From a virus: DNA of 32,000 bases. Shown here in pieces: positions 6,411 through 29,987 of the stretch. The position numbers and the translations under genes are program-made. Position 1 is the stretch's first letter, and each line of letters begins with the position of its first letter. The notes beneath the pieces are model-generated. The model was not told where the DNA came from and ran no database searches. It saw nothing but the letters and a program-made list of their open reading frames with translations. Location: positions 12,478-44,477 of the IMG/VR virus record IMGVR_UViG_3300045970_000175; one strand, given 5' to 3'.

Positions 6411-6475
6411 GCAGTAAGCGGTAAGACACACCACTTATAATCCAACCAACAGTTTTCTTGAGGGAACCAATAAAA

Positions 6476-7135
6476 ATGAGCACAGAGCAACTTGATCCTA
6501 AAGACACATTTAAGGGTCGAAGATTTCATGTTCATTTTTGTGTTGTCTGTAGCGAAAAATTTTTGTATAATAGGCCTCCTGGAAATAAGGCTGCAAAGAC
6601 TTGCTCAAAATTATGCGCGAACATACTTCGCTCAATGAAGACGTCTGGAAAAACTCATACACAACAACATGCAGAAAAGATACGCATTGCACTAACTGGG
6701 AAAAATTATTCTACTGAAAGATGTCTTGCAATAAGTTTAGGAAGAAAAGGCAAGAGTGCTGGCAGTGATCACTGGAATTGGAATGAAGATAGAGGCTTTT
6801 TACTTGCTCGCAAGAAGTCTTCTGGCGCGATGAGAAGCATATTGCGACACACTTTAGATCAACTTGGAGGAAAGAAAAATAGAAAAACAGAAGAGTTGTT
6901 GGGATACACTCACGTTGAGTTGAGAAATCATCTTGAGAGACTGTTTAAACCTGGTATGACATGGGAAAATTATGGATACGGTGATGACAAATGGCACATT
7001 GACCACATCAAGCCTGTGTCGGCGTTTGAAATAGGTGAACATCCTAAAGATGTAAATGCCCTAAGAAATCTTCAACCTCTATGGCAACACGAGAATTTTG
7101 TAAAGGGAAAAAAATGGGAGAAAAGTAATGAGTGA
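6476..7135 (+). CDS. HNH homing endonuclease with N-terminal Cys4 zinc ribbon
   Basis: KWHIDHIKPVSAFE...NLQPLWQHENFVKGKK is an HNH core. The N-terminal motif is CVVCSEKF...CSKLC. ATG 6476 follows GAGGGA; the track start is TTG 6458. Clear paralogue of 12897-13463. Confidence 0.85.
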   Translation: MSTEQLDPKDTFKGRRFHVHFCVVCSEKFLYNRPPGNKAAKTCSKLCANILRSMKTSGKTHTQQHAEKIRIALTGKNYSTERCLAISLGRKGKSAGSDHWNWNEDRGFLLARKKSSGAMRSILRHTLDQLGGKKNRKTEELLGYTHVELRNHLERLFKPGMTWENYGYGDDKWHIDHIKPVSAFEIGEHPKDVNALRNLQPLWQHENFVKGKKWEKSNE

Positions 7136-10577: not shown

Positions 10578-11063
10578 ATGCGCTTGGATTTTGATTGGAG
10601 AAGACACCTCATTACTGTTGGTAAACCTGGTGTCTGCGTTTTCTGCAATTCTGGGTTTGTTGGTCGCAGTAAATTGTATTGTTCTACTGCATGCTACTGG
10701 AAAAGCAAATCTAAAGGACGTAACATAAGTTATGGCAATAGAACGTGTAAAGGTTGTGATGTTTCTTTTGAAGCTAAAGCGTCTAGACATTATTTTTGTG
10801 ACGAGTGCAAAGAAAGTCCAATACCAACGTGGATCGCACGATACAAAATAACTGGACAACAAATTAGAGAGCTTTTTGAAAAGAGGGATGGTCTTTGCTT
10901 TCTTTGTGACAATGTAGCAAAATACATCGATCATAATCATCAAACTGGTAAAGTTAGAGGTGTGCTTTGCCCTCATTGTAATACTGCTCTTGGAAGAGTT
11001 GATGTTCCTGGGTGGCTTGAAAAGACAAACAAGTATTTGAGTGGAGAAATAAATGGATCTTAG
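10578..11063 (+). CDS. recombination endonuclease VII family protein with N-terminal zinc ribbon
   Basis: CFLCDNVAKYIDHNHQTGKVRGVLCPHCNTALG matches the T4 endo VII signature (CxxC...DHxHxTGxxRGxLCxxCN). The N-terminal CVFCNSGF...CSTACYWKS resembles the N-termini of the two HNH genes. Confidence 0.85.
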   Translation: MRLDFDWRRHLITVGKPGVCVFCNSGFVGRSKLYCSTACYWKSKSKGRNISYGNRTCKGCDVSFEAKASRHYFCDECKESPIPTWIARYKITGQQIRELFEKRDGLCFLCDNVAKYIDHNHQTGKVRGVLCPHCNTALGRVDVPGWLEKTNKYLSGEINGS

Positions 11064-11973
11064 ACATCATCATCTTTTTTCGCATAGTGGTTGCATGGAT
11101 GGCAGCGGAGCTGCTATTTTGTTCAGACACGCCGGTGGAGACCCGAAGAACATTCATTGGACACCCGCAGGACATCTTGGAGAAGTTCTTGCTGAAGCTG
11201 CTGTAACGAAGAACCCTAACATTCCCATCCTTATCGTAGACGTAGCGCCTGAGAATGAAGATGTGGCTGTGTTCCTACACGAGAGAGGAAACTTCAAGGT
11301 TATTGACCATCATGGAAGTGCTGCTCAATTCCATGGTCGTCCTGGATACGAAGTTCCATTGAAGAATGAAGCCTGTGGAACTGAGTTGTTCCGTCGTTGG
11401 CTCGTTGCAAGTGGAATGGGCTTGTTTGCTGATAAGCCGTTTGAGAGACTTGCTCTGATGATTGATGACCACGATCGTTGGGTGCTAGAGAAGCCCATGT
11501 CAATCCAGATGCCTCGCTTCTTCGCATTTACGGGACAGCAGGAGTTCATCGAGAGGTTCATGGACGTAAGAGTTCGTTTCTCAGAAGAAAAAGACTTCTA
11601 CTGGAATGAATTCGAGAAGCAAATGCTCCAGTTGATCGAAAGAGCACAGGCTCGTCGCTTCAGCAAGCTGATGGATAAGTTCATCGTGAAGCCAGTTAAG
11701 TTTGGTGATAGAGAGATTAAGATTGGCTACATAATCTCAGCAGAGGTGAACTGTTCAGAGCTGCTGCACGAGTATCTTAAACTTCACCCAGAAGTTGATC
11801 TATCGTGTCAGATTAACATTGACCTCAGCAAGGTAAGTCTAAGGTCTATTGATAAGGCAGACATCACAGAGTTCGTCAAGCCATTTAAGGGTGGTGGTCA
11901 CAAGAATGCAGGTGGTCACGGATTGCCAGATGGATTGAACGATTTCATAATTCGGAGCACTCATGGCGCGTAG
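11053..11973 (+). CDS. DHH/DHHA1 family phosphoesterase (RecJ/NrnA-like)
   Basis: Motifs HSGCMDGSGAA (I), LIVDVAP (II), VIDHHGS (III, DHH) and the DHHA1 motif GGGHKNAGGH. Confidence 0.8.
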   Translation: MDLRHHHLFSHSGCMDGSGAAILFRHAGGDPKNIHWTPAGHLGEVLAEAAVTKNPNIPILIVDVAPENEDVAVFLHERGNFKVIDHHGSAAQFHGRPGYEVPLKNEACGTELFRRWLVASGMGLFADKPFERLALMIDDHDRWVLEKPMSIQMPRFFAFTGQQEFIERFMDVRVRFSEEKDFYWNEFEKQMLQLIERAQARRFSKLMDKFIVKPVKFGDREIKIGYIISAEVNCSELLHEYLKLHPEVDLSCQINIDLSKVSLRSIDKADITEFVKPFKGGGHKNAGGHGLPDGLNDFIIRSTHGA

Positions 11974-12937
11974 TTTCTTTGGCGAAAACTTCGACGTGTT
12001 GTTTAGTGGCTTGTGCAAGAAAATTGTAGAATTCCCGGATTATACTTGCAAGCCACGCGGTCAAGTCATCAAGGAATTGATTGCTCCCACTCTTACTCTT
12101 ACTAATCCTCGTGCTCGCATCCTTGCTTCTCCAGAGCGTGCTGCAGATTACGGCTTTGGTGTCGGTGAGTTCTTCTGGTATTGGCTCGGCAAACAGGACG
12201 TCGAGTCGATGCTCTACTACAACAAGAGGATGGGTCAGTTCAGCGACAACGGCTTTACACTCAACTCTGCTTATGGGCATCGTACTCGTAAGATGACGTT
12301 TGATGTAGACGGTGTCGACACAGCGTACTCAACGCAATGGGATGCTGTGAAGAGAACATTGTTTGAAGACCCTGATAGTCGTCGTGCTATTCTAATCATT
12401 GGTATGCCACAGGATTACACTGTCGGAGCGTATCAGCCGTCCAAGGACCTACCTTGCACTCTCTCTTTACAGTTCTTCATCAGAGAGAATGAACTTCATC
12501 TTCATACAACGATGCGAAGCAATGATGCTTTCTGGGGTCTCACTTACGACCTCTTTAGTTTCACTCTGCTTCAGGAATGCATGATGCTTGAGTTGCAGGC
12601 TGCTGGGATGACTGACTTGAATCTTGGCATGTATACGCACACCGCAGGGTCACTGCACATTTATGATCGTCACTTTGCACAGGCATCTGCAGTAGCAGAC
12701 ACCTATTTAAAGATAGGGAGCATCTCCGCAGAGCCGATGCTCCCACTCTCCCTTGAGGAACTCGCCTCATTAGCAGAGCAGGAAACGGCATTGCGCACCG
12801 GAAAGGTGGCCGAAATTGGCGAAACTCAGTTCAGTAGCGGGGTTAGATGGATGGCTATTCAACTGAATGCTCATCGTCGTAAAAGAGACGCAGAAAATGC
12901 AAATCAAATGCCAAAATTGTCTAAAGATAACAGATAA
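11963..12937 (+). CDS. ThyA-superfamily pyrimidine deoxynucleotide C5-transferase, closest to T4 gp42 dCMP hydroxymethylase
   Basis: GEFFWYW (catalytic Glu), NSAYG, DPDSRRAILII, catalytic Cys in DLPCTLSLQFFI, MRSNDAFWGLTYD and AGSLHIYDRHF. Asp sits 8 residues after the RSxD Asp, where thymidylate synthases have Asn. About 90 extra C-terminal residues. Confidence 0.75.
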   Translation: MARSFFGENFDVLFSGLCKKIVEFPDYTCKPRGQVIKELIAPTLTLTNPRARILASPERAADYGFGVGEFFWYWLGKQDVESMLYYNKRMGQFSDNGFTLNSAYGHRTRKMTFDVDGVDTAYSTQWDAVKRTLFEDPDSRRAILIIGMPQDYTVGAYQPSKDLPCTLSLQFFIRENELHLHTTMRSNDAFWGLTYDLFSFTLLQECMMLELQAAGMTDLNLGMYTHTAGSLHIYDRHFAQASAVADTYLKIGSISAEPMLPLSLEELASLAEQETALRTGKVAEIGETQFSSGVRWMAIQLNAHRRKRDAENANQMPKLSKDNR

Positions 12938-13463
12938 GAGACGTGGCACTAAATTTTGTTCTCTTGAATGCTATTGGGAAGACAAAGAAGGAAGTTCAGC
13001 GTCACAGTATCACAAGGATGCTATGTCTGCTGGTTTGATTGGCAGGAAACTTTCTGCAGAGCATAAACAAAAACTATCTAGAAGAGGACCTGCTCATTGG
13101 AGATGGAACGACGACAGAGCAGATCAACAAAATAGAAATAGACTAGCAAAAGCGTATAGGACATTAATAGGAAGAACACTTGGGTGGAAAAAGCAGAATA
13201 AGACGAATGTCGAACTGGGATACTCTTCATCTGACTTGAGAATACATCTCGAGAAACTGTTTGTTGATGGTATGAGTTGGAATAATCACGGAAAAGGACA
13301 TGGAAAGTGGCACATAGATCATGTGCAACCAATAAGTTCTTTTGAGTTAGGCACGCCTCCCGACATCGTGAATGCTCTATCAAACTTACAGCCGCTATGG
13401 GAAGAAGATAACTTAAGTAAGGGCGGAGTTGGAAACGGAAATAAGTATGGCAAAACTAAGTAG
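12897..13463 (+). CDS. HNH homing endonuclease, paralogue of 6476-7135
   Basis: KWHIDHVQPISSFELGTPPDIVNALSNLQPLWEEDNLSKGG, with an N-terminal CQNCLK...CSLECYWEDK ribbon. ATG 12897 is preferred; the track start ATG 12867 would overlap the preceding gene further. Confidence 0.85.
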   Translation: MQIKCQNCLKITDKRRGTKFCSLECYWEDKEGSSASQYHKDAMSAGLIGRKLSAEHKQKLSRRGPAHWRWNDDRADQQNRNRLAKAYRTLIGRTLGWKKQNKTNVELGYSSSDLRIHLEKLFVDGMSWNNHGKGHGKWHIDHVQPISSFELGTPPDIVNALSNLQPLWEEDNLSKGGVGNGNKYGKTK

Positions 13464-13938
13464 CGTCGTCGGATTTGATCAGTGGCAGAACGTCTCAACG
13501 AACATCGTAGAAAGAGGGATGCAGAGCGAGAACGACAGGTGGGATCCGGCGACAGTAATCGGGCTCAAGTCGTCTGACAGAGTTCTTGTAGTTGGCAACG
13601 CAGCATTCTTGCCATGGTTGTCTACCATCTTCAACCACAACGAAAACAATCTTGTATCTGTTCGCAAGGTCTCAGAAATCGAGACACGCCTACACGAAGG
13701 TGAGCAGTTTGACAAGGTTATTCTTGCTCGTGAGACATCATACTCTCACGACCATGTTCTTCGTGCTGGTGCTTTCGGTGCTCAACTCATCTATTTCCCG
13801 CAGGATGATGGCTGGCAGTTCGAGCAGTCTGTAGAGTTCTATTACCCAGGTGCCAGAGTGTGGAAGTTTGATAGCACCTTTGGTCAGGTTATCATTGCGG
13901 AGCCTCACGGGGCTTCATGGAGAATACTGCATGGCTAA
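13447..13938 (+). CDS. hypothetical protein
   Basis: ATG 13447 (track start TTG 13429). It has weak Rossmann-like strands RVLVVGNAA and FDKVILA. No confident family. Confidence 0.45.
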   Translation: MAKLSSVVGFDQWQNVSTNIVERGMQSENDRWDPATVIGLKSSDRVLVVGNAAFLPWLSTIFNHNENNLVSVRKVSEIETRLHEGEQFDKVILARETSYSHDHVLRAGAFGAQLIYFPQDDGWQFEQSVEFYYPGARVWKFDSTFGQVIIAEPHGASWRILHG

Positions 13939-14146
13939 GTTCAATGTAGAGTATAAATCTGTTGTTGTTCAAAACGACACAACAACAACTACACAATCAA
14001 AGCGTTGTGTCGACGCAATTGGTCTAGCAGAAATACTTGCTTGGGCAAGAGACAACGAGGGGCTGCAGTTCCTCACCATTCGCAGCGTCCCAGAAAAGAC
14101 GCCGGCGCCAATCAAGACGAACCCAGTTAAGCCGGTGGTCAAGTGA
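13931..14146 (+). CDS. hypothetical small protein
   Basis: ATG 13931 overlaps the previous stop (ATGGCTAA). The track start at 13850 would lie inside the upstream CDS. Confidence 0.4.
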   Translation: MAKFNVEYKSVVVQNDTTTTTQSKRCVDAIGLAEILAWARDNEGLQFLTIRSVPEKTPAPIKTNPVKPVVK

Positions 14147-14589
14147 ACGGCGTAGACCCCAAAAATTCTCCAACGATGGAGGACCTCATGGTCACGCCAG
14201 AGTCAATAATTGACGAAAAGTGGGCACCAGATCGTCTTGAACTTATCTTCCTTAAGCAGCGTGAACTCATGGACCAACTTATTCTTTCTGATAAGCTTCC
14301 TGAGTATCCTGTTGACATCACCAGCAAGCACGGTCAACGTCAGATCAAAGAGTTGACGTGGGCGATGGTCGAGGAAATGGCTGAAGCTAGTTACATCCTC
14401 AAGAACCGTGCTCATCGCTTCACTGACCGCACTGACGTTGATTTTGCACACTTCAAGGAAGAGCTCGCTGACGCTCTTGCGTACTTCATTGAAATCTGCG
14501 TCTTCGCAAACATTTCACCGGCAGAGTTGTTTGAAGAGTATTGCGCGAAGAACATTCTTGTGAAGAAGCGCATTCAGGACAGATACTAA
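14143..14589 (+). CDS. MazG-like all-alpha nucleoside triphosphate pyrophosphohydrolase
   Basis: Paired acidic helices WAMVEEMAEASY and FKEELADALAYFIE (ExxE...ExxD pattern). GTG start overlaps the previous stop (GTGA). Confidence 0.6.
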   Translation: MNGVDPKNSPTMEDLMVTPESIIDEKWAPDRLELIFLKQRELMDQLILSDKLPEYPVDITSKHGQRQIKELTWAMVEEMAEASYILKNRAHRFTDRTDVDFAHFKEELADALAYFIEICVFANISPAELFEEYCAKNILVKKRIQDRY

Positions 14590-21750: not shown

Positions 21751-24700
21751 TAAAAGAGTTCTCAAGCCTACATTCACATAGCCACTTTAGCGTAATGGAC
21801 GGTATTGCATTACCTGAAGAGATGGTTCTTGCTGCTAAGAATAAAGGGTTGAAGTCTATTGCCTTCACAGAGCACGGTCATTGTCATTCACATGCAGATG
21901 CTTACATCATGGGTAAACGTCATGGCGTCCGCACCATTTTCGGAGTTGAGGCCTATGTTATCGACAGCCTCCTCGAGTGGCAGATTGCAAAAACAACGAA
22001 GGACACAGCAGAAGACGAGGATGCGACGAACACGGGCGCATTCAAGGCTGCTGGCAAGAAGGGGCATTTGGTGCTCCTTGCGTGCAACAGAGAGGGGTTG
22101 AGCAACCTTTATCAACTTACCTATCTGGCGCATAAGGACGGTTATTATGGCAAGCCCAGAATGGACAAGCGTCTCCTCTCCCTTCATTCGCAAGGACTTG
22201 TGGCATCGTCTGCGTGCATGGGAGGAGTCATCTCCAACAAAATTTGGTCTTTCTCTAGAAGTGAGTGTGGATGGGATGACGTGGTCGCCGAAGCACGTGC
22301 TTACGATCAGATCTTCGGGCGCGGGAGGTTCTTTCTTGAGCTTCAGCTTAACGAATCAGCTTCCCAGCAGTACATCAACGAGGCACTCATCAAGATCCAT
22401 GACGAAACAGGCATACCTCTAACAGTCACTGTAGACAGCCATTACATCAACAAAGAGGATTGGGCTGCACAAGAAATCCTCTACATGCTTCGTTCAAAGA
22501 AGACATTCGCCACGCGTGGTGATGATTGGTCGTTCGACATCAAGCAGCTCTACATCAAATCTCCAGAAGAGATGTGGATGAGCTACCTGCAGTTCGGCAA
22601 GTCTCACATTCCAGAGATGGTTATCATGGAGGCATTCGAAAACACGCTTCTCATTGATAGCCTCGTCGAAGAGTATGACCCCGACATCCACCAGCGTCTT
22701 CCTGCCATCAAGGGCCTCATTGGTGACAGCTTCAAGGACATGGGTGAGCGGTGCATTGAAGCATTGAAGGCAAAGGGACTTCACAAGAATGAACGCTACG
22801 CCAAGCAGCTCATCTACGAGCTCAAGGTCATCAAAGACAAGGGATTTGCCAACTACTTCCTACTTGTGCAAACAATGGTTCAAGAAGCAAAGAAAGAGAT
22901 GCTTGTGGGACCTGGCCGTGGTTCTGCTGCTGGCTCTCTTGTTTGCTACATGCTAGGTATCACAGACCTTGACCCTCTCAAGCATGATCTGATGTTCGAG
23001 CGGTTCCTGGACCCTGACCGCAAAGAGTTGCCAGACATTGACCTTGACTTTGAAGATCCTGAGCGTGTAAAAGCGATCATGGCAAACATCTACGGTGACG
23101 ACAATGTCGCCTCTTTGTCAACATACGGGACTTTCCAAATCAAGGGTCTGATGAAGGACCTTGCTCGTGCTTACGACCTTGATCACAAGGAAGTGAACAA
23201 GATCAACAAGAAGATCGAAATGGAACTCAAGGTCCTATATAATAACCAGGGACCAGACAAGGTGATCAAAGATAAATCAATGATCACTGTCACATTGGAG
23301 GACGTCGAGCGTGTCAGCCCATCATTCCAGGAATTTTGCTCCAAATACCCCGATCCTGCTCGGCATTTTAAGCGGCTCTATGGTCGTAATCGCCACATTG
23401 GTCGTCACGCTTCCGCTATTATCATTGGCGACAATCTCCCTTCTGAAACAGCGATTTTTAAGCAGAAAGACAAAGAGACTGGCGACCTAGTCACACAGAC
23501 GTCATTCACCGAAGGTATTGTCAATAAAAACATCTCAGCAATGGGCTTCGTCAAGTTCGACCTTCTTGGTCTTGCTACTTTGCGTGTTATTCACCACGCA
23601 CTTGACCTCATTGCTCTCAAAGAAGGGACGACATTCCAACATGAGTACGAACGCATCTCGGGCGATAACCTTGACATGGATGATGAAAAAGTCCTCAAGC
23701 ACGTCTTCTGGCAGGGTAACTTCGCTGGTATCTTCCAATTCACCGAAAAGGGCATCCGCAAAGTCGCCAAGGGTATCAAGCCGACAGCCTTCAAAGACAT
23801 CTCTGCAATCGCGGCTCTCTATCGTCCAGGCCCTCTTGGATCTGGGATGCATAAGTTATACGCAGGCAATAAGCGCCTACACGAAAAAGGTGAACTAAAG
23901 TTCGAGCATCCAATCCTCAAGACAATCATGGAGCCGACGTATGGTTGCCTGGTGTATCAGGAGCAGATGCTTTTGATGGGTGGCAAGCTCGGTAAGCTTG
24001 ATGGTAAGGACGTCCAACGTCTTCGCAAACTTCTCCTCAAGAAGGATAAGTCAAAGTCTGACGAATTCCTTGCACAGGAGAAAAAGGAGCTGATGGACAA
24101 GTTCATCGCAGGCGCTGGCGAGAATGACTACCCAGACGGCAAAGAGGCATGGGACATGATGGAGAAGTTCGGTGGTTACGGCTTCAACAAGGCACACTCC
24201 GATGCCTACTCCAAGATCACCATGCAGACTGCTTGGCTTGCTACGTACTATCCTCTAGAGTTCTACGCTGCTCTGCTCACCAAGGGCCAGTCTGGCGAGA
24301 TGCAGGACTACGTCAGCGACATCAAACGTGCCGGTGTGAAGGTTCTTCCGGTTAGCATCAACGAGAGCAAACTGAGTCACACAGTCATGGACAAGGCTAT
24401 TCGGCTATCACTCAAGACAGTTAAGGGTGCTGGCAAGAGTGGTATCGACAAGATTGTAGCCACACAGCCATACGAGGACTGGTTCGATTTCATCCTCAGG
24501 TGCAAGGCAAGCAAGACAGCCATTGAACCGCTTATCGCAGCTGGTGCGTTTGATAGCATCTCTAAAAACATGAAGAATGTTGAGAGATGGTACGAACTCT
24601 GGCAGACAGACAGCAAGTTCAAGTCAAAGAAGTGGAAAGAGTATCAGGAGCAGTGCAATGCTATCGCCGAGGCAAACAAGGATAACGACTACACGATGGC

Positions 24701-25145
24701 AGAGAAGGTTGCTCTTGAAAATGCTCTGATGGGCTTCTCTGTGAGAGGCTCTCCATTCGAGATCCTTGACCGCAAGAAGAAGATCTCTGCAGTGTTCGAG
24801 GACGCCATCGTCACCTACAAGGAGTTCGTTGAAAGTACTGACGAGGTAGGCATGATCCCTGTGTGCATAAAGGACTACAAGGAGCGGCCTCAGCGTAATG
24901 GTCAGATGTTCGCATTCATCAAGTTCGCCACCGATACAGGCGAAGAGTTTGAGGCGCCAGCATTCTCATCAACGTGGAAGCACATCAAAGCAAGCATACA
25001 CAAGGGCGGTGTTTACATCGCGACATTCAACAAGAAACTTGACGACCCAGAGAGTTTCGTTGTTGGGCGTCCAGGATGGGCACAGTCTGCTCACTCTTCG
25101 CAACAGGCTATGATCAACGTTGATAGTATAGATCTCAATGGGTGA
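21747..25145 (+). CDS. dnaE: DNA polymerase III alpha subunit (DnaE-type replicase)
   Basis: PHP domain LHSHSHFSVMDG, palm GPGRGSAAGSLVCYMLGITDLDP, catalytic PDIDLDF, GYGFNKAHSDAY, and a C-terminal OB-like region. 1132 aa. Confidence 0.95.
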   Translation: MIKEFSSLHSHSHFSVMDGIALPEEMVLAAKNKGLKSIAFTEHGHCHSHADAYIMGKRHGVRTIFGVEAYVIDSLLEWQIAKTTKDTAEDEDATNTGAFKAAGKKGHLVLLACNREGLSNLYQLTYLAHKDGYYGKPRMDKRLLSLHSQGLVASSACMGGVISNKIWSFSRSECGWDDVVAEARAYDQIFGRGRFFLELQLNESASQQYINEALIKIHDETGIPLTVTVDSHYINKEDWAAQEILYMLRSKKTFATRGDDWSFDIKQLYIKSPEEMWMSYLQFGKSHIPEMVIMEAFENTLLIDSLVEEYDPDIHQRLPAIKGLIGDSFKDMGERCIEALKAKGLHKNERYAKQLIYELKVIKDKGFANYFLLVQTMVQEAKKEMLVGPGRGSAAGSLVCYMLGITDLDPLKHDLMFERFLDPDRKELPDIDLDFEDPERVKAIMANIYGDDNVASLSTYGTFQIKGLMKDLARAYDLDHKEVNKINKKIEMELKVLYNNQGPDKVIKDKSMITVTLEDVERVSPSFQEFCSKYPDPARHFKRLYGRNRHIGRHASAIIIGDNLPSETAIFKQKDKETGDLVTQTSFTEGIVNKNISAMGFVKFDLLGLATLRVIHHALDLIALKEGTTFQHEYERISGDNLDMDDEKVLKHVFWQGNFAGIFQFTEKGIRKVAKGIKPTAFKDISAIAALYRPGPLGSGMHKLYAGNKRLHEKGELKFEHPILKTIMEPTYGCLVYQEQMLLMGGKLGKLDGKDVQRLRKLLLKKDKSKSDEFLAQEKKELMDKFIAGAGENDYPDGKEAWDMMEKFGGYGFNKAHSDAYSKITMQTAWLATYYPLEFYAALLTKGQSGEMQDYVSDIKRAGVKVLPVSINESKLSHTVMDKAIRLSLKTVKGAGKSGIDKIVATQPYEDWFDFILRCKASKTAIEPLIAAGAFDSISKNMKNVERWYELWQTDSKFKSKKWKEYQEQCNAIAEANKDNDYTMAEKVALENALMGFSVRGSPFEILDRKKKISAVFEDAIVTYKEFVESTDEVGMIPVCIKDYKERPQRNGQMFAFIKFATDTGEEFEAPAFSSTWKHIKASIHKGGVYIATFNKKLDDPESFVVGRPGWAQSAHSSQQAMINVDSIDLNG

Positions 25146-27889: not shown

Positions 27890-28627
27890 GTGAAAATAGT
27901 GAAGCCATCAGTTGAGTTGCTCTGGATTACGCCTGAACCATACAAACACATCGAGATGTCGGGTCGCGTATGCTACAAGTCAGAGGACAAGATCACCAAA
28001 GACAGCGCTGTAAAGTTCTGTAGCATGATCAAGCAAAGAGGCCATGAGAGTGTGGTTGAGCACGCTGTTGCAAGTTTCAAGATCATCTGTGATCGTGGTG
28101 TAAGCCATGAGATTGTAAGACATCGTCTTGCTTCTTACAGCCAGGAGAGCACGAGGTATTGCAACTACTCAAAGGACAAATTCGACAATGGCATTTCGCT
28201 GTCGCCGATGATGACAGGATTGAACGACTTCCAGATAGATCGTCGTGTGACGCTCTGGCAGCACATCGAGGACGTGTACCTTGCAGAGATTGCAGATGGC
28301 GTCAGTCCACAGCAAGCCAGAGACAACCTACCCACATGCCTAAAGACAGAGATCGTGATGACTGCCAACTTCCGCGAGTGGATGCACTTCATCAATCTGC
28401 GTACCAGCCCAGCAGCACACCCACAAATCAGGCCTGTCGCTGAAGAGATTAGGTTGATCCTAGCTGAGTACTGCCCGACTATCTTTGTCGCACCAAATCA
28501 TGGGTCAAAGACAATGACATTCACACCTGAGGAAAGAGCTGCTATACTACACGCTCTTAGCATAGACGGAGAGATTAACCCAACAATGGCACCAGCACTG
28601 CTGGCTGCAATGGAGAAAATGAAATGA
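27890..28627 (+). CDS. thyX: FAD-dependent thymidylate synthase ThyX
   Basis: ThyX signature RHRLASYSQESTRY, plus HESVVEH and FINLR. GTG start. Confidence 0.95.
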   Translation: MKIVKPSVELLWITPEPYKHIEMSGRVCYKSEDKITKDSAVKFCSMIKQRGHESVVEHAVASFKIICDRGVSHEIVRHRLASYSQESTRYCNYSKDKFDNGISLSPMMTGLNDFQIDRRVTLWQHIEDVYLAEIADGVSPQQARDNLPTCLKTEIVMTANFREWMHFINLRTSPAAHPQIRPVAEEIRLILAEYCPTIFVAPNHGSKTMTFTPEERAAILHALSIDGEINPTMAPALLAAMEKMK

Positions 28628-29334
28628 GCATGGCAAGCGAGATGGTAAAGCAAATTGAAGATCACGGCTCCTGCTCAATCAGTGGGTCTGTGCAGTATGA
28701 TAAGACGCCTGCTGCACCACTCAAGAACACTGGATATGCTGACCTTGACCTCTTCCTTGACGACTGTTTCAAGACGATGCGTGAGAAGGGCCACGATTAC
28801 CGCCAGGGCAATGACGACGACCTGCTACATAACTTTAGGACTGTCTCTGACAGCGTTGGCATAGACATCACAAAAGTCTGGTATACATACTTCTACAAGC
28901 ATTACTCTGCGATGGTCACTTTCATCAAAGAGGGTGGCCAATCAGAGAGCGAGCCCATTGAGGGTCGCATCAAGGACCAGATCGTCTATCTCCTACTCTT
29001 CTATCGCATGGTTCAAGAGAAGAAGGCCAAGTCAAAAGAGAAGGCAGAAAATCTCACATTCATTCTCAGAAAACTAGACGCCTCGTTTGGTCAAACATCA
29101 GAAGTCGTAGAGAAGGGCTCAGCGGCTGACACTATTTCGTTTGCAGAAAGTCAAAAGAGGAAGAGAATACAGGAACTCGCTGGTATCCCTGATGCTGGTA
29201 TCGTAATCCCTACTGCTTTTGCTGAGCGCGCCACAGAGATTGTCAAAGAGTTGGCTGAGAGAGATGCAGAGCGTGTATCTGATACATCAGTTGCAGTTGT
29301 TGGATACGGAACAGGAGAGGGTGATCATCAATGA
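28624..29334 (+). CDS. hypothetical protein; N-terminal part possibly MazG/DUF1599-like helical nucleotide-binding domain
   Basis: MREKGHDYRQGNDDDLLHNFR...KHYSAMVTFIKEG resembles the K..DYG...NF pattern of such domains (from memory, unverified). Acidic C-terminal half. ATGA overlap with thyX. Confidence 0.3.
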   Translation: MSMASEMVKQIEDHGSCSISGSVQYDKTPAAPLKNTGYADLDLFLDDCFKTMREKGHDYRQGNDDDLLHNFRTVSDSVGIDITKVWYTYFYKHYSAMVTFIKEGGQSESEPIEGRIKDQIVYLLLFYRMVQEKKAKSKEKAENLTFILRKLDASFGQTSEVVEKGSAADTISFAESQKRKRIQELAGIPDAGIVIPTAFAERATEIVKELAERDAERVSDTSVAVVGYGTGEGDHQ

Positions 29335-29987
29335 GAATCGTGGTGGATCAAGACGAAGTCCTAGCTCACTTTGTTGATAGGACACTCGGGCGCTGGAACC
29401 TAGAACATAAGACAAGTTTCACTCGAGAAGACATCAACATGTGGCACATGGAAGACACGCTTGGGGCAGGAGCGTATGAGAAGATCACGCAATGGATTAA
29501 TGAGCGTGATTGGTTTGATAGCCTAGAGCCTATTGCTGGTGCAGTTGAAGGCTTCAACGAACTGCGTAAGGCAGGCCACGATGTAGTTGTCTGCACATCT
29601 ATCGCTGGTGATGTTGAGAATGCCTATGACGGCAAGCGCCGGTGGATGAAGAAGCACTTTCCAGACTTCGACCTCAAGAACTTCTACGTGATGACACGCA
29701 AGGGACACCTCAAGGGTGATGTTCTTATAGATGATGCCGCTCACTACCACGAGGACTGGTTTGCAAACGGAGGGAAGCGTGCTATCGTAATGGACGCTCC
29801 GTGGAACAGACGAGAGAAGAGAGCAGCCAGAGCAGCCAACTGGAAGCAGATCAATCAGATCATCAAGTTCTGGGTTGCACTTGACGAGTATGAAGCAATG
29901 CAAGCAGACTTTGAGCAAAAGCGGATCTTTGCATTGGCAGACACAACATTGAAGCACGTTGATAAAGTAATGAAAGGGTTCAAATGA
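29331..29987 (+). CDS. 5'(3')-deoxyribonucleotidase (HAD superfamily, NT5C-like)
   Basis: HAD motif I VVDQDEVLA (DxDxV), motif II VVVCTS, motif III/IV K...VLIDDAAH. Confidence 0.7.
   Translation: MRIVVDQDEVLAHFVDRTLGRWNLEHKTSFTREDINMWHMEDTLGAGAYEKITQWINERDWFDSLEPIAGAVEGFNELRKAGHDVVVCTSIAGDVENAYDGKRRWMKKHFPDFDLKNFYVMTRKGHLKGDVLIDDAAHYHEDWFANGGKRAIVMDAPWNRREKRAARAANWKQINQIIKFWVALDEYEAMQADFEQKRIFALADTTLKHVDKVMKGFK

Follow-up and report, generated by a model that had tools for sequence, protein, structure and literature searches.

Does a thymidylate synthase-like gene that lies among the replication genes of an uncultivated phage serve to make thymidylate, or rather a modified cytosine nucleotide? 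This question is raised by a stretch of 32,000 nucleotides (virus record IMGVR_UViG_3300045970_000175 of IMG/VR, positions 12,478 to 44,477), hereafter the window. Its open reading frame (ORF) at 11963-12937 had been described in an initial annotation as a ThyA-superfamily enzyme with a cytosine-specifying Asp, a candidate for producing C5-modified deoxycytidine monophosphate (dCMP). All residue tests support this central claim. We propose, with a probability of about 0.7, that the ORF encodes a methylenetetrahydrofolate (CH2-THF)-dependent deoxycytidylate 5-hydroxymethyltransferase within a conserved phage nucleotide module. What the analysis shows directly is the fold, the family, the active-site signature and the conservation of the neighbourhood.

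11963-12937, + strand: predicted deoxycytidylate 5-hydroxymethyltransferase, ThyA superfamily, MilA-type long form, 324 aa (PF00303, match to MilA, AlphaFold (AF2) model with Foldseek, residues as in T4 gp42)

The ORF is present in the window as initially described, with an ATG start, a GGAG 5 nt upstream of it, and an overlap of 11 nt between its start and the stop of the preceding DHH gene. All the motifs quoted for it were also recovered, namely GEFFWYW (residues 68-74), DPDSRRAILII (136-146), DLPCTLSLQF (162-171), MRSNDAFWG (184-192), LTYD (193-196), and GSLHIYDRHF (229-238). By profile match, fold and catalytic residues the protein is a ThyA-superfamily enzyme. It matches Pfam Thymidylat_synt PF00303 (2.1e-20, 73.4 bits vs a cut-off of 24.3) and PHROG 5131 (2.5e-48), and the catalytic and binding set C165, E69, R140/R141, R185-S186-N187-D188, and H232/Y234 is invariant in 119 homologues. 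Its scores against the NCBIfam thymidylate synthase equivalogs are all far below the cut-offs (20-64 bits vs 108-427, for example 64 vs 327).

The substrate and product signature was read from MAFFT alignments of the 324-aa protein with its 119 homologues and reference enzymes. The references were T4 gp42, SPO1 gp29, phage G gp319, RB69 gp48, and the Xp12 ThyA homologue, all from annotated genomes, together with MilA and E. coli ThyA. As controls, the alignments reproduce D169N and L143E of RB69 gp48 as published, Asn177 of SPO1 gp29, and the Lys/Ala pair of MilA. Four codons carry the signature:

12446-12448, + strand: codon of Asp162 (E. coli L143 position, where an acidic residue is the hydroxymethylase mark), invariant in 119/119 homologues
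12455-12457, + strand: codon of the catalytic nucleophile Cys165 (E. coli C146), invariant in 119/119 homologues and all references
12524-12526, + strand: codon of Asp188 (E. coli D169), retained, the D169N mark being absent; RB69 gp48 has Asn in the same column
12548-12550, + strand: codon of the cytosine-specifying Asp196 (E. coli N177, T4 gp42 D179, MilA D186), invariant in 119/119 homologues

Asp196 lies eight residues past Asp188 of the RSND motif, with Gly192 at +4. Its column holds D179 of T4 gp42, D186 of MilA and the Asp of phage G gp319, opposite N177 of E. coli ThyA and the Asn of SPO1 gp29; the Asn of B. subtilis ThyA was aligned to Asp196 in phmmer. The initial placement of this Asp at the N177/D179 position, with the Gly at +4 aligned, therefore holds in an alignment that includes ThyA, gp42 and SPO1-type enzymes. 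Of the 148 nearest representatives of 50%-identity clusters, 146 keep the residue and two have a gap at this column. Relative to E. coli ThyA, the protein is unchanged at E58, Y94, R126, R127, C146, R166, S167, D169, G173, H207, and Y209, and changed at L143 (Asp162), H147 (Thr166), Q165 (Met184), C168 (Asn187), and N177 (Asp196). At all these positions (E. coli 58, 94, 126, 127, 143, 146, 147, 165-169, 173, 177, 207, and 209) it is identical to T4 gp42. At position 143, T4 gp42, SPO1 gp29, MilA, and phage G gp319 all have Asp, whereas E. coli ThyA has Leu and the Xp12 enzyme Asn. The initial annotation had also taken the spelling of the motifs as leaning towards gp42. This is correct for MRSND (vs QRSCD) but not for DPDSRR, since E. 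coli ThyA has it as well; a second spelling that does discriminate is D-x-P-C-T, vs L-A-P-C-H of thymidylate synthase.

Published rules give these residues a meaning. N177D selects dCMP, and an acidic residue at position 143 accompanies the hydroxymethyl rather than the methyl product (Lee et al. 2026, PMC13326640), while D169N is a mark of flavin- and O2-dependent 5-hydroxy-dCMP synthases (PMC13326640). In metaviromes, positions 177 and 147 show the strongest association with modified DNA (PMC8670742). The preference for ribo- or deoxyribonucleotides is set by Lys133'/Ala176 of MilA vs Arg/Ser, and an A176S/K133R mutant of MilA switches its preference to dCMP (PMC5175136). The window enzyme has Arg140 and Ser186 at these two positions, the deoxyribose-type residues. 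By all the published residue rules, there is a strong case for a predicted dCMP 5-hydroxymethylase. The residues also narrow the prediction: the product would carry a hydroxymethyl group and neither a methyl nor a hydroxyl group, and the substrate would be a deoxyribo- and not a ribonucleotide.

A canonical ThyA was considered as a candidate and rejected, given the replacement of Asn177, Leu143 and His147 by Asp196, Asp162 and Thr166, the low equivalog scores, and a C-terminus formed by a MilA-type domain with no thymidylate synthase tail.

While the active-site signature is indeed gp42-like, as the initial annotation had put it, descent and fold are not, the nearest enzyme being MilA by both phmmer and Foldseek. 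MilA is the cytidine monophosphate (CMP) 5-hydroxymethylase of mildiomycin biosynthesis in Streptomyces (PDB 5JNH, 5B6D, 5JP9). It was matched by phmmer at 4.6e-33 (36% identity over the aligned core), ahead of B. subtilis ThyA (1.4e-12) and T4 gp42 (5.9e-11, 24% identity). An AF2 model built from 74 sequences had a mean predicted local distance difference test score (pLDDT) of 94.3 and a predicted template modelling score (pTM) of 0.92, and was confident also over residues 250-315. Among the hundreds of thymidylate synthase, dCMP hydroxymethylase and MilA chains matched by Foldseek, MilA came first (5jp9/5jnh, E ~1e-25, template modelling score (TM) 0.79-0.82) with 313-319 aligned columns, whereas thymidylate synthases and the T4 dCMP hydroxymethylase aligned over ~250 columns. 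MilA also shares Asp143 and Asp177 with the window enzyme. It differs by its Lys133'/Ala176 and ribonucleotide preference, and by its place in bacterial secondary metabolism instead of a phage replication module.

12710-12907, + strand: C-terminal helical domain, residues ~250-315, counterpart of MilA helices alpha9-alpha13 (AF2, Foldseek full-length alignment to MilA)

The C-terminal extension, for which the initial annotation recognised no counterpart, does have one. Given the full-length Foldseek match to MilA, it is modelled as the counterpart of the MilA five-helix domain and is conserved throughout the family. Two helices are confidently predicted (H264-278 and H292-315), and M259, E274, L277, R278, W296, L301, H304, R305, K307, and R308 are conserved in the family. 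In MilA, the five-helix C-terminal domain is remote from the active site, and solubility depends on it (PMC5175136).

By sequence and fold, the protein groups with MilA, phage G gp319 and SPO1 gp29, and not with gp42. Among cultured phages, the best match is gp319 of Bacillus phage G (tblastn 3e-43, 36-37% identity), followed by the SPO1-type deoxyuridine monophosphate (dUMP) hydroxymethylases. Phage G gp319, which like PHROG 5131 goes under the name of phage 'thymidylate synthases', has the same D/T/M/S/N/D/D signature and the long C-terminus; it differs in that Gln replaces the second Arg in the DSRR pair, and it belongs to an unrelated phage lineage. SPO1 gp29, a dUMP hydroxymethylase, shares the long-form clade (30% identity), the Asp at the L143 position and the C-terminal extension, but has Asn at the N177 position, hence its uracil substrate. 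As a side observation, an annotated alpha-glucosyltransferase gene lies within 5 kb of gp319, as do genes for a thymidylate kinase and a putative dCMP deaminase (L003 1233-5412, equal to phage G 228758-232937), which suggests that phage G may carry glucosylated hydroxymethylcytosine.

The family is large in public sequence data. At E<=1e-10 we found 869 homologues, and the best 120 of these had 49-100% identity and full-length cover, with none from a cultured organism. Searched with a profile, 1.84 billion cluster representatives yielded 2,326 clusters at E<=1e-30. The 148 nearest representatives include 145 with Asp/Asp/Asp at positions 143, 169, and 177. About 24 of the 148 are fused to a thymidylate-kinase/deoxynucleoside-kinase-like domain. 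These fusions (P0139, P0145, P0194 and ~20 others; 460-550 aa) join it to a domain with the dCMP-hydroxymethylase signature and thereby link the clade with the metabolism of mononucleotides. When 12 kb were compared with 50,697 phage genomes by megablast, there was no match, and for DnaE no cultured phage matched better than 34% (tblastn); the phage therefore has no close cultured relative.

The genomic context fits the same picture. The window covers one strand of a phage module for replication and nucleotides. The gene order begins with a RecA-like protein, a flap endonuclease (FEN), a DnaB-like helicase, a class II ribonucleotide reductase (RNR), an EndoVII/HNH ORF, a DHH phosphoesterase, the hydroxymethylase, and an HNH ORF. 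It continues with a 139-aa and a 71-aa ORF, an all-alpha NTP pyrophosphohydrolase, an RNase T-like exonuclease, a Pol-beta-like nucleotidyltransferase, and two tRNAs, and ends with an MT-A70 methyltransferase, a GIY-YIG ORF, DnaE, dCMP deaminase, ThyX, and an NT5C nucleotidase. The genes that matter most for the argument are:

11053-11973, + strand: DHH/DHHA1 phosphoesterase, translationally coupled to the hydroxymethylase (phrog_4771 6.3e-25, Pfam DHHA1 2.2e-4, DHH and GGGH motifs)
12897-13463, + strand: HNH/EndoVII-type homing-endonuclease-like ORF (phrog_1035 1.6e-9; paralogue of 6458-7135)
13519-13938, + strand: 139-aa protein with a class-I methyltransferase-like Rossmann fold (AF2 pLDDT 88.9, Foldseek)
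14143-14589, + strand: all-alpha NTP pyrophosphohydrolase, probable remote homologue of the T4 gp56 dCTPase/dUTPase (phrog_12184 6.6e-13; Pfam dUTPase_2 8.3e-4, MazG 7e-3)
21747-25145, + strand: DnaE-type replicative polymerase (PHP, DNA_pol3_alpha, finger and HHH_6 domains; tblastn to phage DnaE)
25515-26048, + strand: dCMP deaminase, a predicted dUMP supply for ThyX (Pfam PF00383 1.1e-16; HAE...PCxxC motif)
27890-28627, + strand: flavin-dependent thymidylate synthase ThyX (Pfam PF02511 5.4e-46; RHRxxxxxxxS motif)
29331-29987, + strand: 5'(3')-deoxyribonucleotidase, NT5C family (Pfam PF06941 1.4e-31)

The order RecA-FEN-DnaB-RNR-DHH-hydroxymethylase-(139-aa)-pyrophosphohydrolase...DnaE is kept in contigs of 100-220 kb, down to ~40% hydroxymethylase identity. 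In 19 of the 21 lineage loci, the DHH gene is directly upstream of the ThyA-like gene, and the translational coupling of the two is kept across the lineage. The DHH product, whose matches to PDB sequences are marginal, could supply deoxynucleoside monophosphates (dNMPs) from oligonucleotides or nucleotides, or it could act in RecJ-like recombination. In L008-L010 and L014-L021, the 139-aa gene separates the ThyA-like gene from the gp56-like one. The 139-aa protein has no Pfam or PHROG match, and all its 26 homologues are in this phage lineage; the best Foldseek matches are weak (S-adenosylmethionine (SAM)-dependent O-methyltransferases, E ~1e-4, TM ~0.5), and the classical SAM motifs are not evident. 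The ORF at 12897-13463 is an insertion outside the pathway, being missing at the same place in L008-L011; its longest frame and the 3' end of the hydroxymethylase gene overlap. In total, four homing-endonuclease-like ORFs lie among the replication genes (6458-7135, 10578-11063, 12897-13463, and 21199-21750, all on the + strand), three of the HNH/EndoVII type and one of the GIY-YIG/NUMOD3 type.

The pyrophosphohydrolase is probably related to T4 gp56, by remote homology only. T4 gp56 matches the same end of Pfam dUTPase_2 as the window protein and cross-matches phrog_12184, while the pyrophosphohydrolases of the lineage cross-match phrog_173 of gp56. An hhalign comparison of the two proteins gave a probability of 76% (E 2.3e-5), aligned to a common C-terminal GY. 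Plain BLASTP is marginal (E 0.065), as are the matches to PDB sequences, so that profile methods alone support the link.

The presence of ThyX and dCMP deaminase, on which the initial annotation had built part of its case, was confirmed by Pfam. As an argument for a cytosine substrate it has less value, as the combination is not special: T4 carries Td and Cd beside gp42. The window enzyme is identical to T4 gp42 (PDB 1B5E, 6A9A) at every specificity and catalytic position compared, has the same predicted reaction, and stands alongside a probable gp56-type pyrophosphohydrolase homologue and a parallel dCMP deaminase/thymidylate synthase route. It differs from gp42 in that their 24% identity is no better than that to ordinary thymidylate synthases, and in that gp42, with 246 aa, lacks the C-terminal helical domain. 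Unlike T4, the window has no gp1-like kinase or alpha/beta-glucosyltransferase, and its phage replicase is of the DnaE type and not of family B.

Together, these genes suggest a T4-style pathway, in which the substrate, the product, the roles of the neighbours, and 5-hydroxymethylcytosine (5hmC) in the virion DNA are all predictions. Cys165 would attack C6 of dCMP, with Glu69 and Asp196 orienting and protonating the cytosine ring, and the methylene group of CH2-THF would be transferred to C5. In an open folate site, with Asp162 in place of the water-excluding Leu, water could then add to the exocyclic methylene, yielding 5-hydroxymethyl-dCMP and tetrahydrofolate. The gp56-like enzyme would convert dCTP to dCMP, thereby supplying dCMP and depleting dCTP, and the coupled DHH phosphoesterase may add further dNMPs. 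In parallel, dCMP deaminase and ThyX would make deoxythymidine monophosphate without a need for dihydrofolate reductase (DHFR). The hydroxymethyl-dCMP would have to be phosphorylated by a kinase from outside the genes recognised in the window and then built in by DnaE, a polymerase that would need to accept the modified deoxynucleoside triphosphate (dNTP).

More distant relatives may encode later steps of such a pathway. At least 12 more distant lineage loci have a three-gene module directly after DnaE (L009 at 17511-20711, L010, L011, L016-L019, L022, L024, L026, L027, and L030). Its first gene encodes a GT75/reversibly glycosylated polypeptide (RGP) protein, with UDP-arabinopyranose mutase as the best PDB match (1.4e-12). 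The second encodes a P-loop protein matching phrog_761 'thymidylate kinase' (5e-8), and the third a GT-B protein with a weak match to phrog_7922 'beta-glucosyltransferase'. Judged by these remote or weak matches, the distant relatives carry candidate counterparts of gp56, gp42, gp1, and a DNA glycosyltransferase, which supports the pathway reading for the family. The module itself is a candidate for a new DNA glycosylation cassette; our literature search found no paper tying the GT75/reversibly glycosylated polypeptide family to phage DNA modification.

Several observations weigh against the hydroxymethylase reading. The specificity call on this family consists of residue correlations, and the L143 rule is correlative. 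Neither a dNMP kinase nor a DNA glycosyltransferase was found in the 32-kb window of the 44.5-kb source contig, in agreement with the initial annotation. This search combined Pfam and PHROG on ~35 ORFs, a Walker-A scan, and tblastn with the RGP, P-loop, and glycosyltransferase (GT) proteins of the relatives and the transferases and kinases of T4 and phage G. The window and contigs of the same or 85%-related phages (L094, L097, L098) are without the post-DnaE module and have dCMP deaminase-ThyX-NT5C there instead. At the edges of the window, the leftmost ORF had no match on record, and the rightmost occurred on a single 1.3-kb contig. Contigs centred on NT5C add ~4 kb with small ORFs and a HAD-like gene, and no kinase or transferase. 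Furthermore, AGCT is strongly avoided in the window (77 observed vs 176.7 +/- 10.6 in shuffles) and in the 84%-identical relative L008 (2 vs 82 expected), which suggests that the cytosines in these phages are not fully shielded. DNA of T4gt, which contains 5hmC, is resistant to AluI (AGCT), cut by MluCI (AATT), and partly cut by RsaI (GTAC) (Table S1, PMC7653180). Therefore, a phage with hydroxymethylcytosine would be expected to avoid AT-only sites. The avoidance of AGCT is unexpected for it, unless cytosine is replaced only in part, the host enzyme accepts the modified base, or a modification-dependent nuclease is at work.

The avoidance of ATAT in the window is extreme, with 8 sites (1999, 2162, 6839, 15046, 16238, 23237, 27643, and 28734) vs 72.6 +/- 7.9 in shuffles (about 73-89 expected); to our knowledge, there is no ATAT-specific restriction enzyme. 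The avoidance of AATT and GTAC in the window is weaker than that of ATAT and AGCT. Over the whole L008 locus, observed/expected counts are 3/42 for AATT, 15/72 for ATAT, and 15/68 for GATT/AATC, and no AGCT avoidance appears in the distant relatives, nor in the T4 and RB69 loci. The pattern resembles an avoidance of restriction sites in which the targets change from one close relative to the next. Because of the AGCT avoidance and the kinase that was not found, modified cytosine in the virion DNA is a candidate only, to which we give roughly even odds.

The AGCT avoidance is also an argument for a more modest role of the enzyme, in which hydroxymethyl-dCMP is only an intermediate, for example deaminated to hydroxymethyl-dUMP, or replaces cytosine partially, so that the virion DNA is not uniformly 5hmC. 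Sites containing C would then still be under restriction pressure, and it would fit that a dCMP deaminase is encoded nearby and that the window shows no dedicated kinase or transferase. We nonetheless consider this doubtful, as the gp56-like pyrophosphohydrolase, conserved and adjoining, is what would be expected for the exclusion of dCTP, ThyX would compete with a hydroxymethyl-U route, and the avoidance could reflect 5hmC-tolerant isoschizomers or modification-dependent nucleases. A dCMP methyltransferase as presumed for Xp12, producing 5-methyl-dCMP through hydride transfer from folate and leading to a phage with 5-methylcytosine, is unlikely. The Asp at the N177 position is common to the Xp12 enzyme, and engineered N177D thymidylate synthases make 5-methyl-dCMP, according to work cited in PMC8670742. 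This Asp is, however, the only mark that the two enzymes share. At positions 143, 147, 165, and 168 the window enzyme has Asp162, Thr166, Met184, and Asn187, like the hydroxymethylases, where Xp12 has Asn, Pro, Leu, and Ser, and it carries the MilA domain instead of a thymidylate synthase C-terminal tail. The Xp12 gene also adjoins a DHFR gene, as expected for an enzyme releasing dihydrofolate, whereas no DHFR was found in the 32-kb window.

The enzymes RB69 gp48, DLP3 gp80, and HY126 AfhB are likewise ThyA homologues acting on dCMP and feed glycosylated cytosines, but they bear D169N and depend on flavin and O2. A 5-hydroxy-dCMP synthase of this kind would share the superfamily, Asp177 and the acidic residue at 143 with the window enzyme. 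The AfhB structures 9iqc and 9iqu are among the Foldseek matches, and the relatives carry a sugar-mutase-like gene. The retention of Asp188, invariant in the family, argues that the protein is therefore not such a synthase, and Gly173 and Tyr209 are kept where RB69 has Val and Phe; we regard this alternative as highly improbable. Hardly more credible is a ribonucleotide hydroxymethylase like MilA or BcmA, acting on CMP for a purpose other than DNA. MilA is the closest enzyme in sequence and among solved structures, yet Arg140 and Ser186 are the residues of deoxy-specific enzymes, in place of Lys133' and Ala176, and the gene sits in a phage module for DNA replication and dNTPs. Databases name the protein a thymidylate synthase, but it is again highly improbable that it is a plain second enzyme of this kind, or that it hydroxymethylates the uracil of dUMP: Asp196 stands where thymidylate synthases and SPO1 gp29 have Asn, the equivalog score is 64 vs 327 bits, and ThyX is already encoded.

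Beyond the proposed dCMP hydroxymethylase, the DnaE-type lineage might make cytosine derivatives that have not been described. The GT75, kinase-like and beta-glucosyltransferase-like proteins of the distant relatives could put a furanose or pentose on 5hmC, and in the sublineage of the window the 13519-13938 protein could derivatise the hydroxymethyl group, for example by O-methylation, leaving a base that can still be cut at AGCT. This extension is speculative and, in our judgement, rather doubtful.

Predicting cytosine modification from Asp177 in phage ThyA homologues is established practice, and our result is a well-supported annotation rather than a surprise. Mildly new are the scale of the MilA-type clade with a dCMP signature in uncultivated phages, its constant pairing with genes for a DHH phosphoesterase and a gp56-like hydrolase, the 139-aa protein that is specific to the lineage and resembles methyltransferases in its fold, and the GT75-like gene in the relatives. 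If the reading is true, the synthesis of hydroxymethylcytosine at the nucleotide level, characterised so far mainly in T-even phages, reaches a large uncultivated lineage of DnaE-type phages of 100-220 kb. The MilA-type long form, known biochemically only from antibiotic biosynthesis, would then be the common phage form. The gene would probably stand at the head of a cytosine-modification route in the style of T4, so that an anti-restriction chemistry of a known kind would occur in a further phage lineage. The family also offers a test set for the residue rules at 177, 143, 169, and 133'/176 in predicting DNA modification from sequence. In addition, the genes for the DHH phosphoesterase and the gp56-like hydrolase, and likewise those for the small protein with a methyltransferase fold and for the GT75-like protein, are candidate partners that could widen the hypermodification repertoire.

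Some further features of the lineage deserve mention. The window encodes a conserved 497-aa protein with no Pfam or PHROG family match (16909-18402, + strand), followed by a minimal 160-aa Pol-beta-like nucleotidyltransferase with a Pol-beta thumb domain (18406-18888, + strand). The tandem tRNA genes (19481-19556 and 19561-19637, + strand) are both tRNA-Ile with the unusual anticodon AAT according to ARAGORN. Rfam supports only the first (48.9 bits), and its anticodon stem, CCAAG/CTTGG, seems by eye to enclose a 9-nt loop. In L008, a 104-kb relative, genes for a 4Fe-4S ferredoxin-type protein and an NrfD-like membrane protein (subunits of the polysulfide/nitrite-reductase type) lie between MT-A70 and DnaE (16696-18709) and are apparently an auxiliary metabolic insertion. 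The module of the 199-kb relative L011 (GCA_040960095.1) includes a Cpn10 co-chaperonin and proteins with an ART-PolyVal ADP-ribosyltransferase domain and a NADAR domain (11353-11643, 13161-13748, and 20066-20530).

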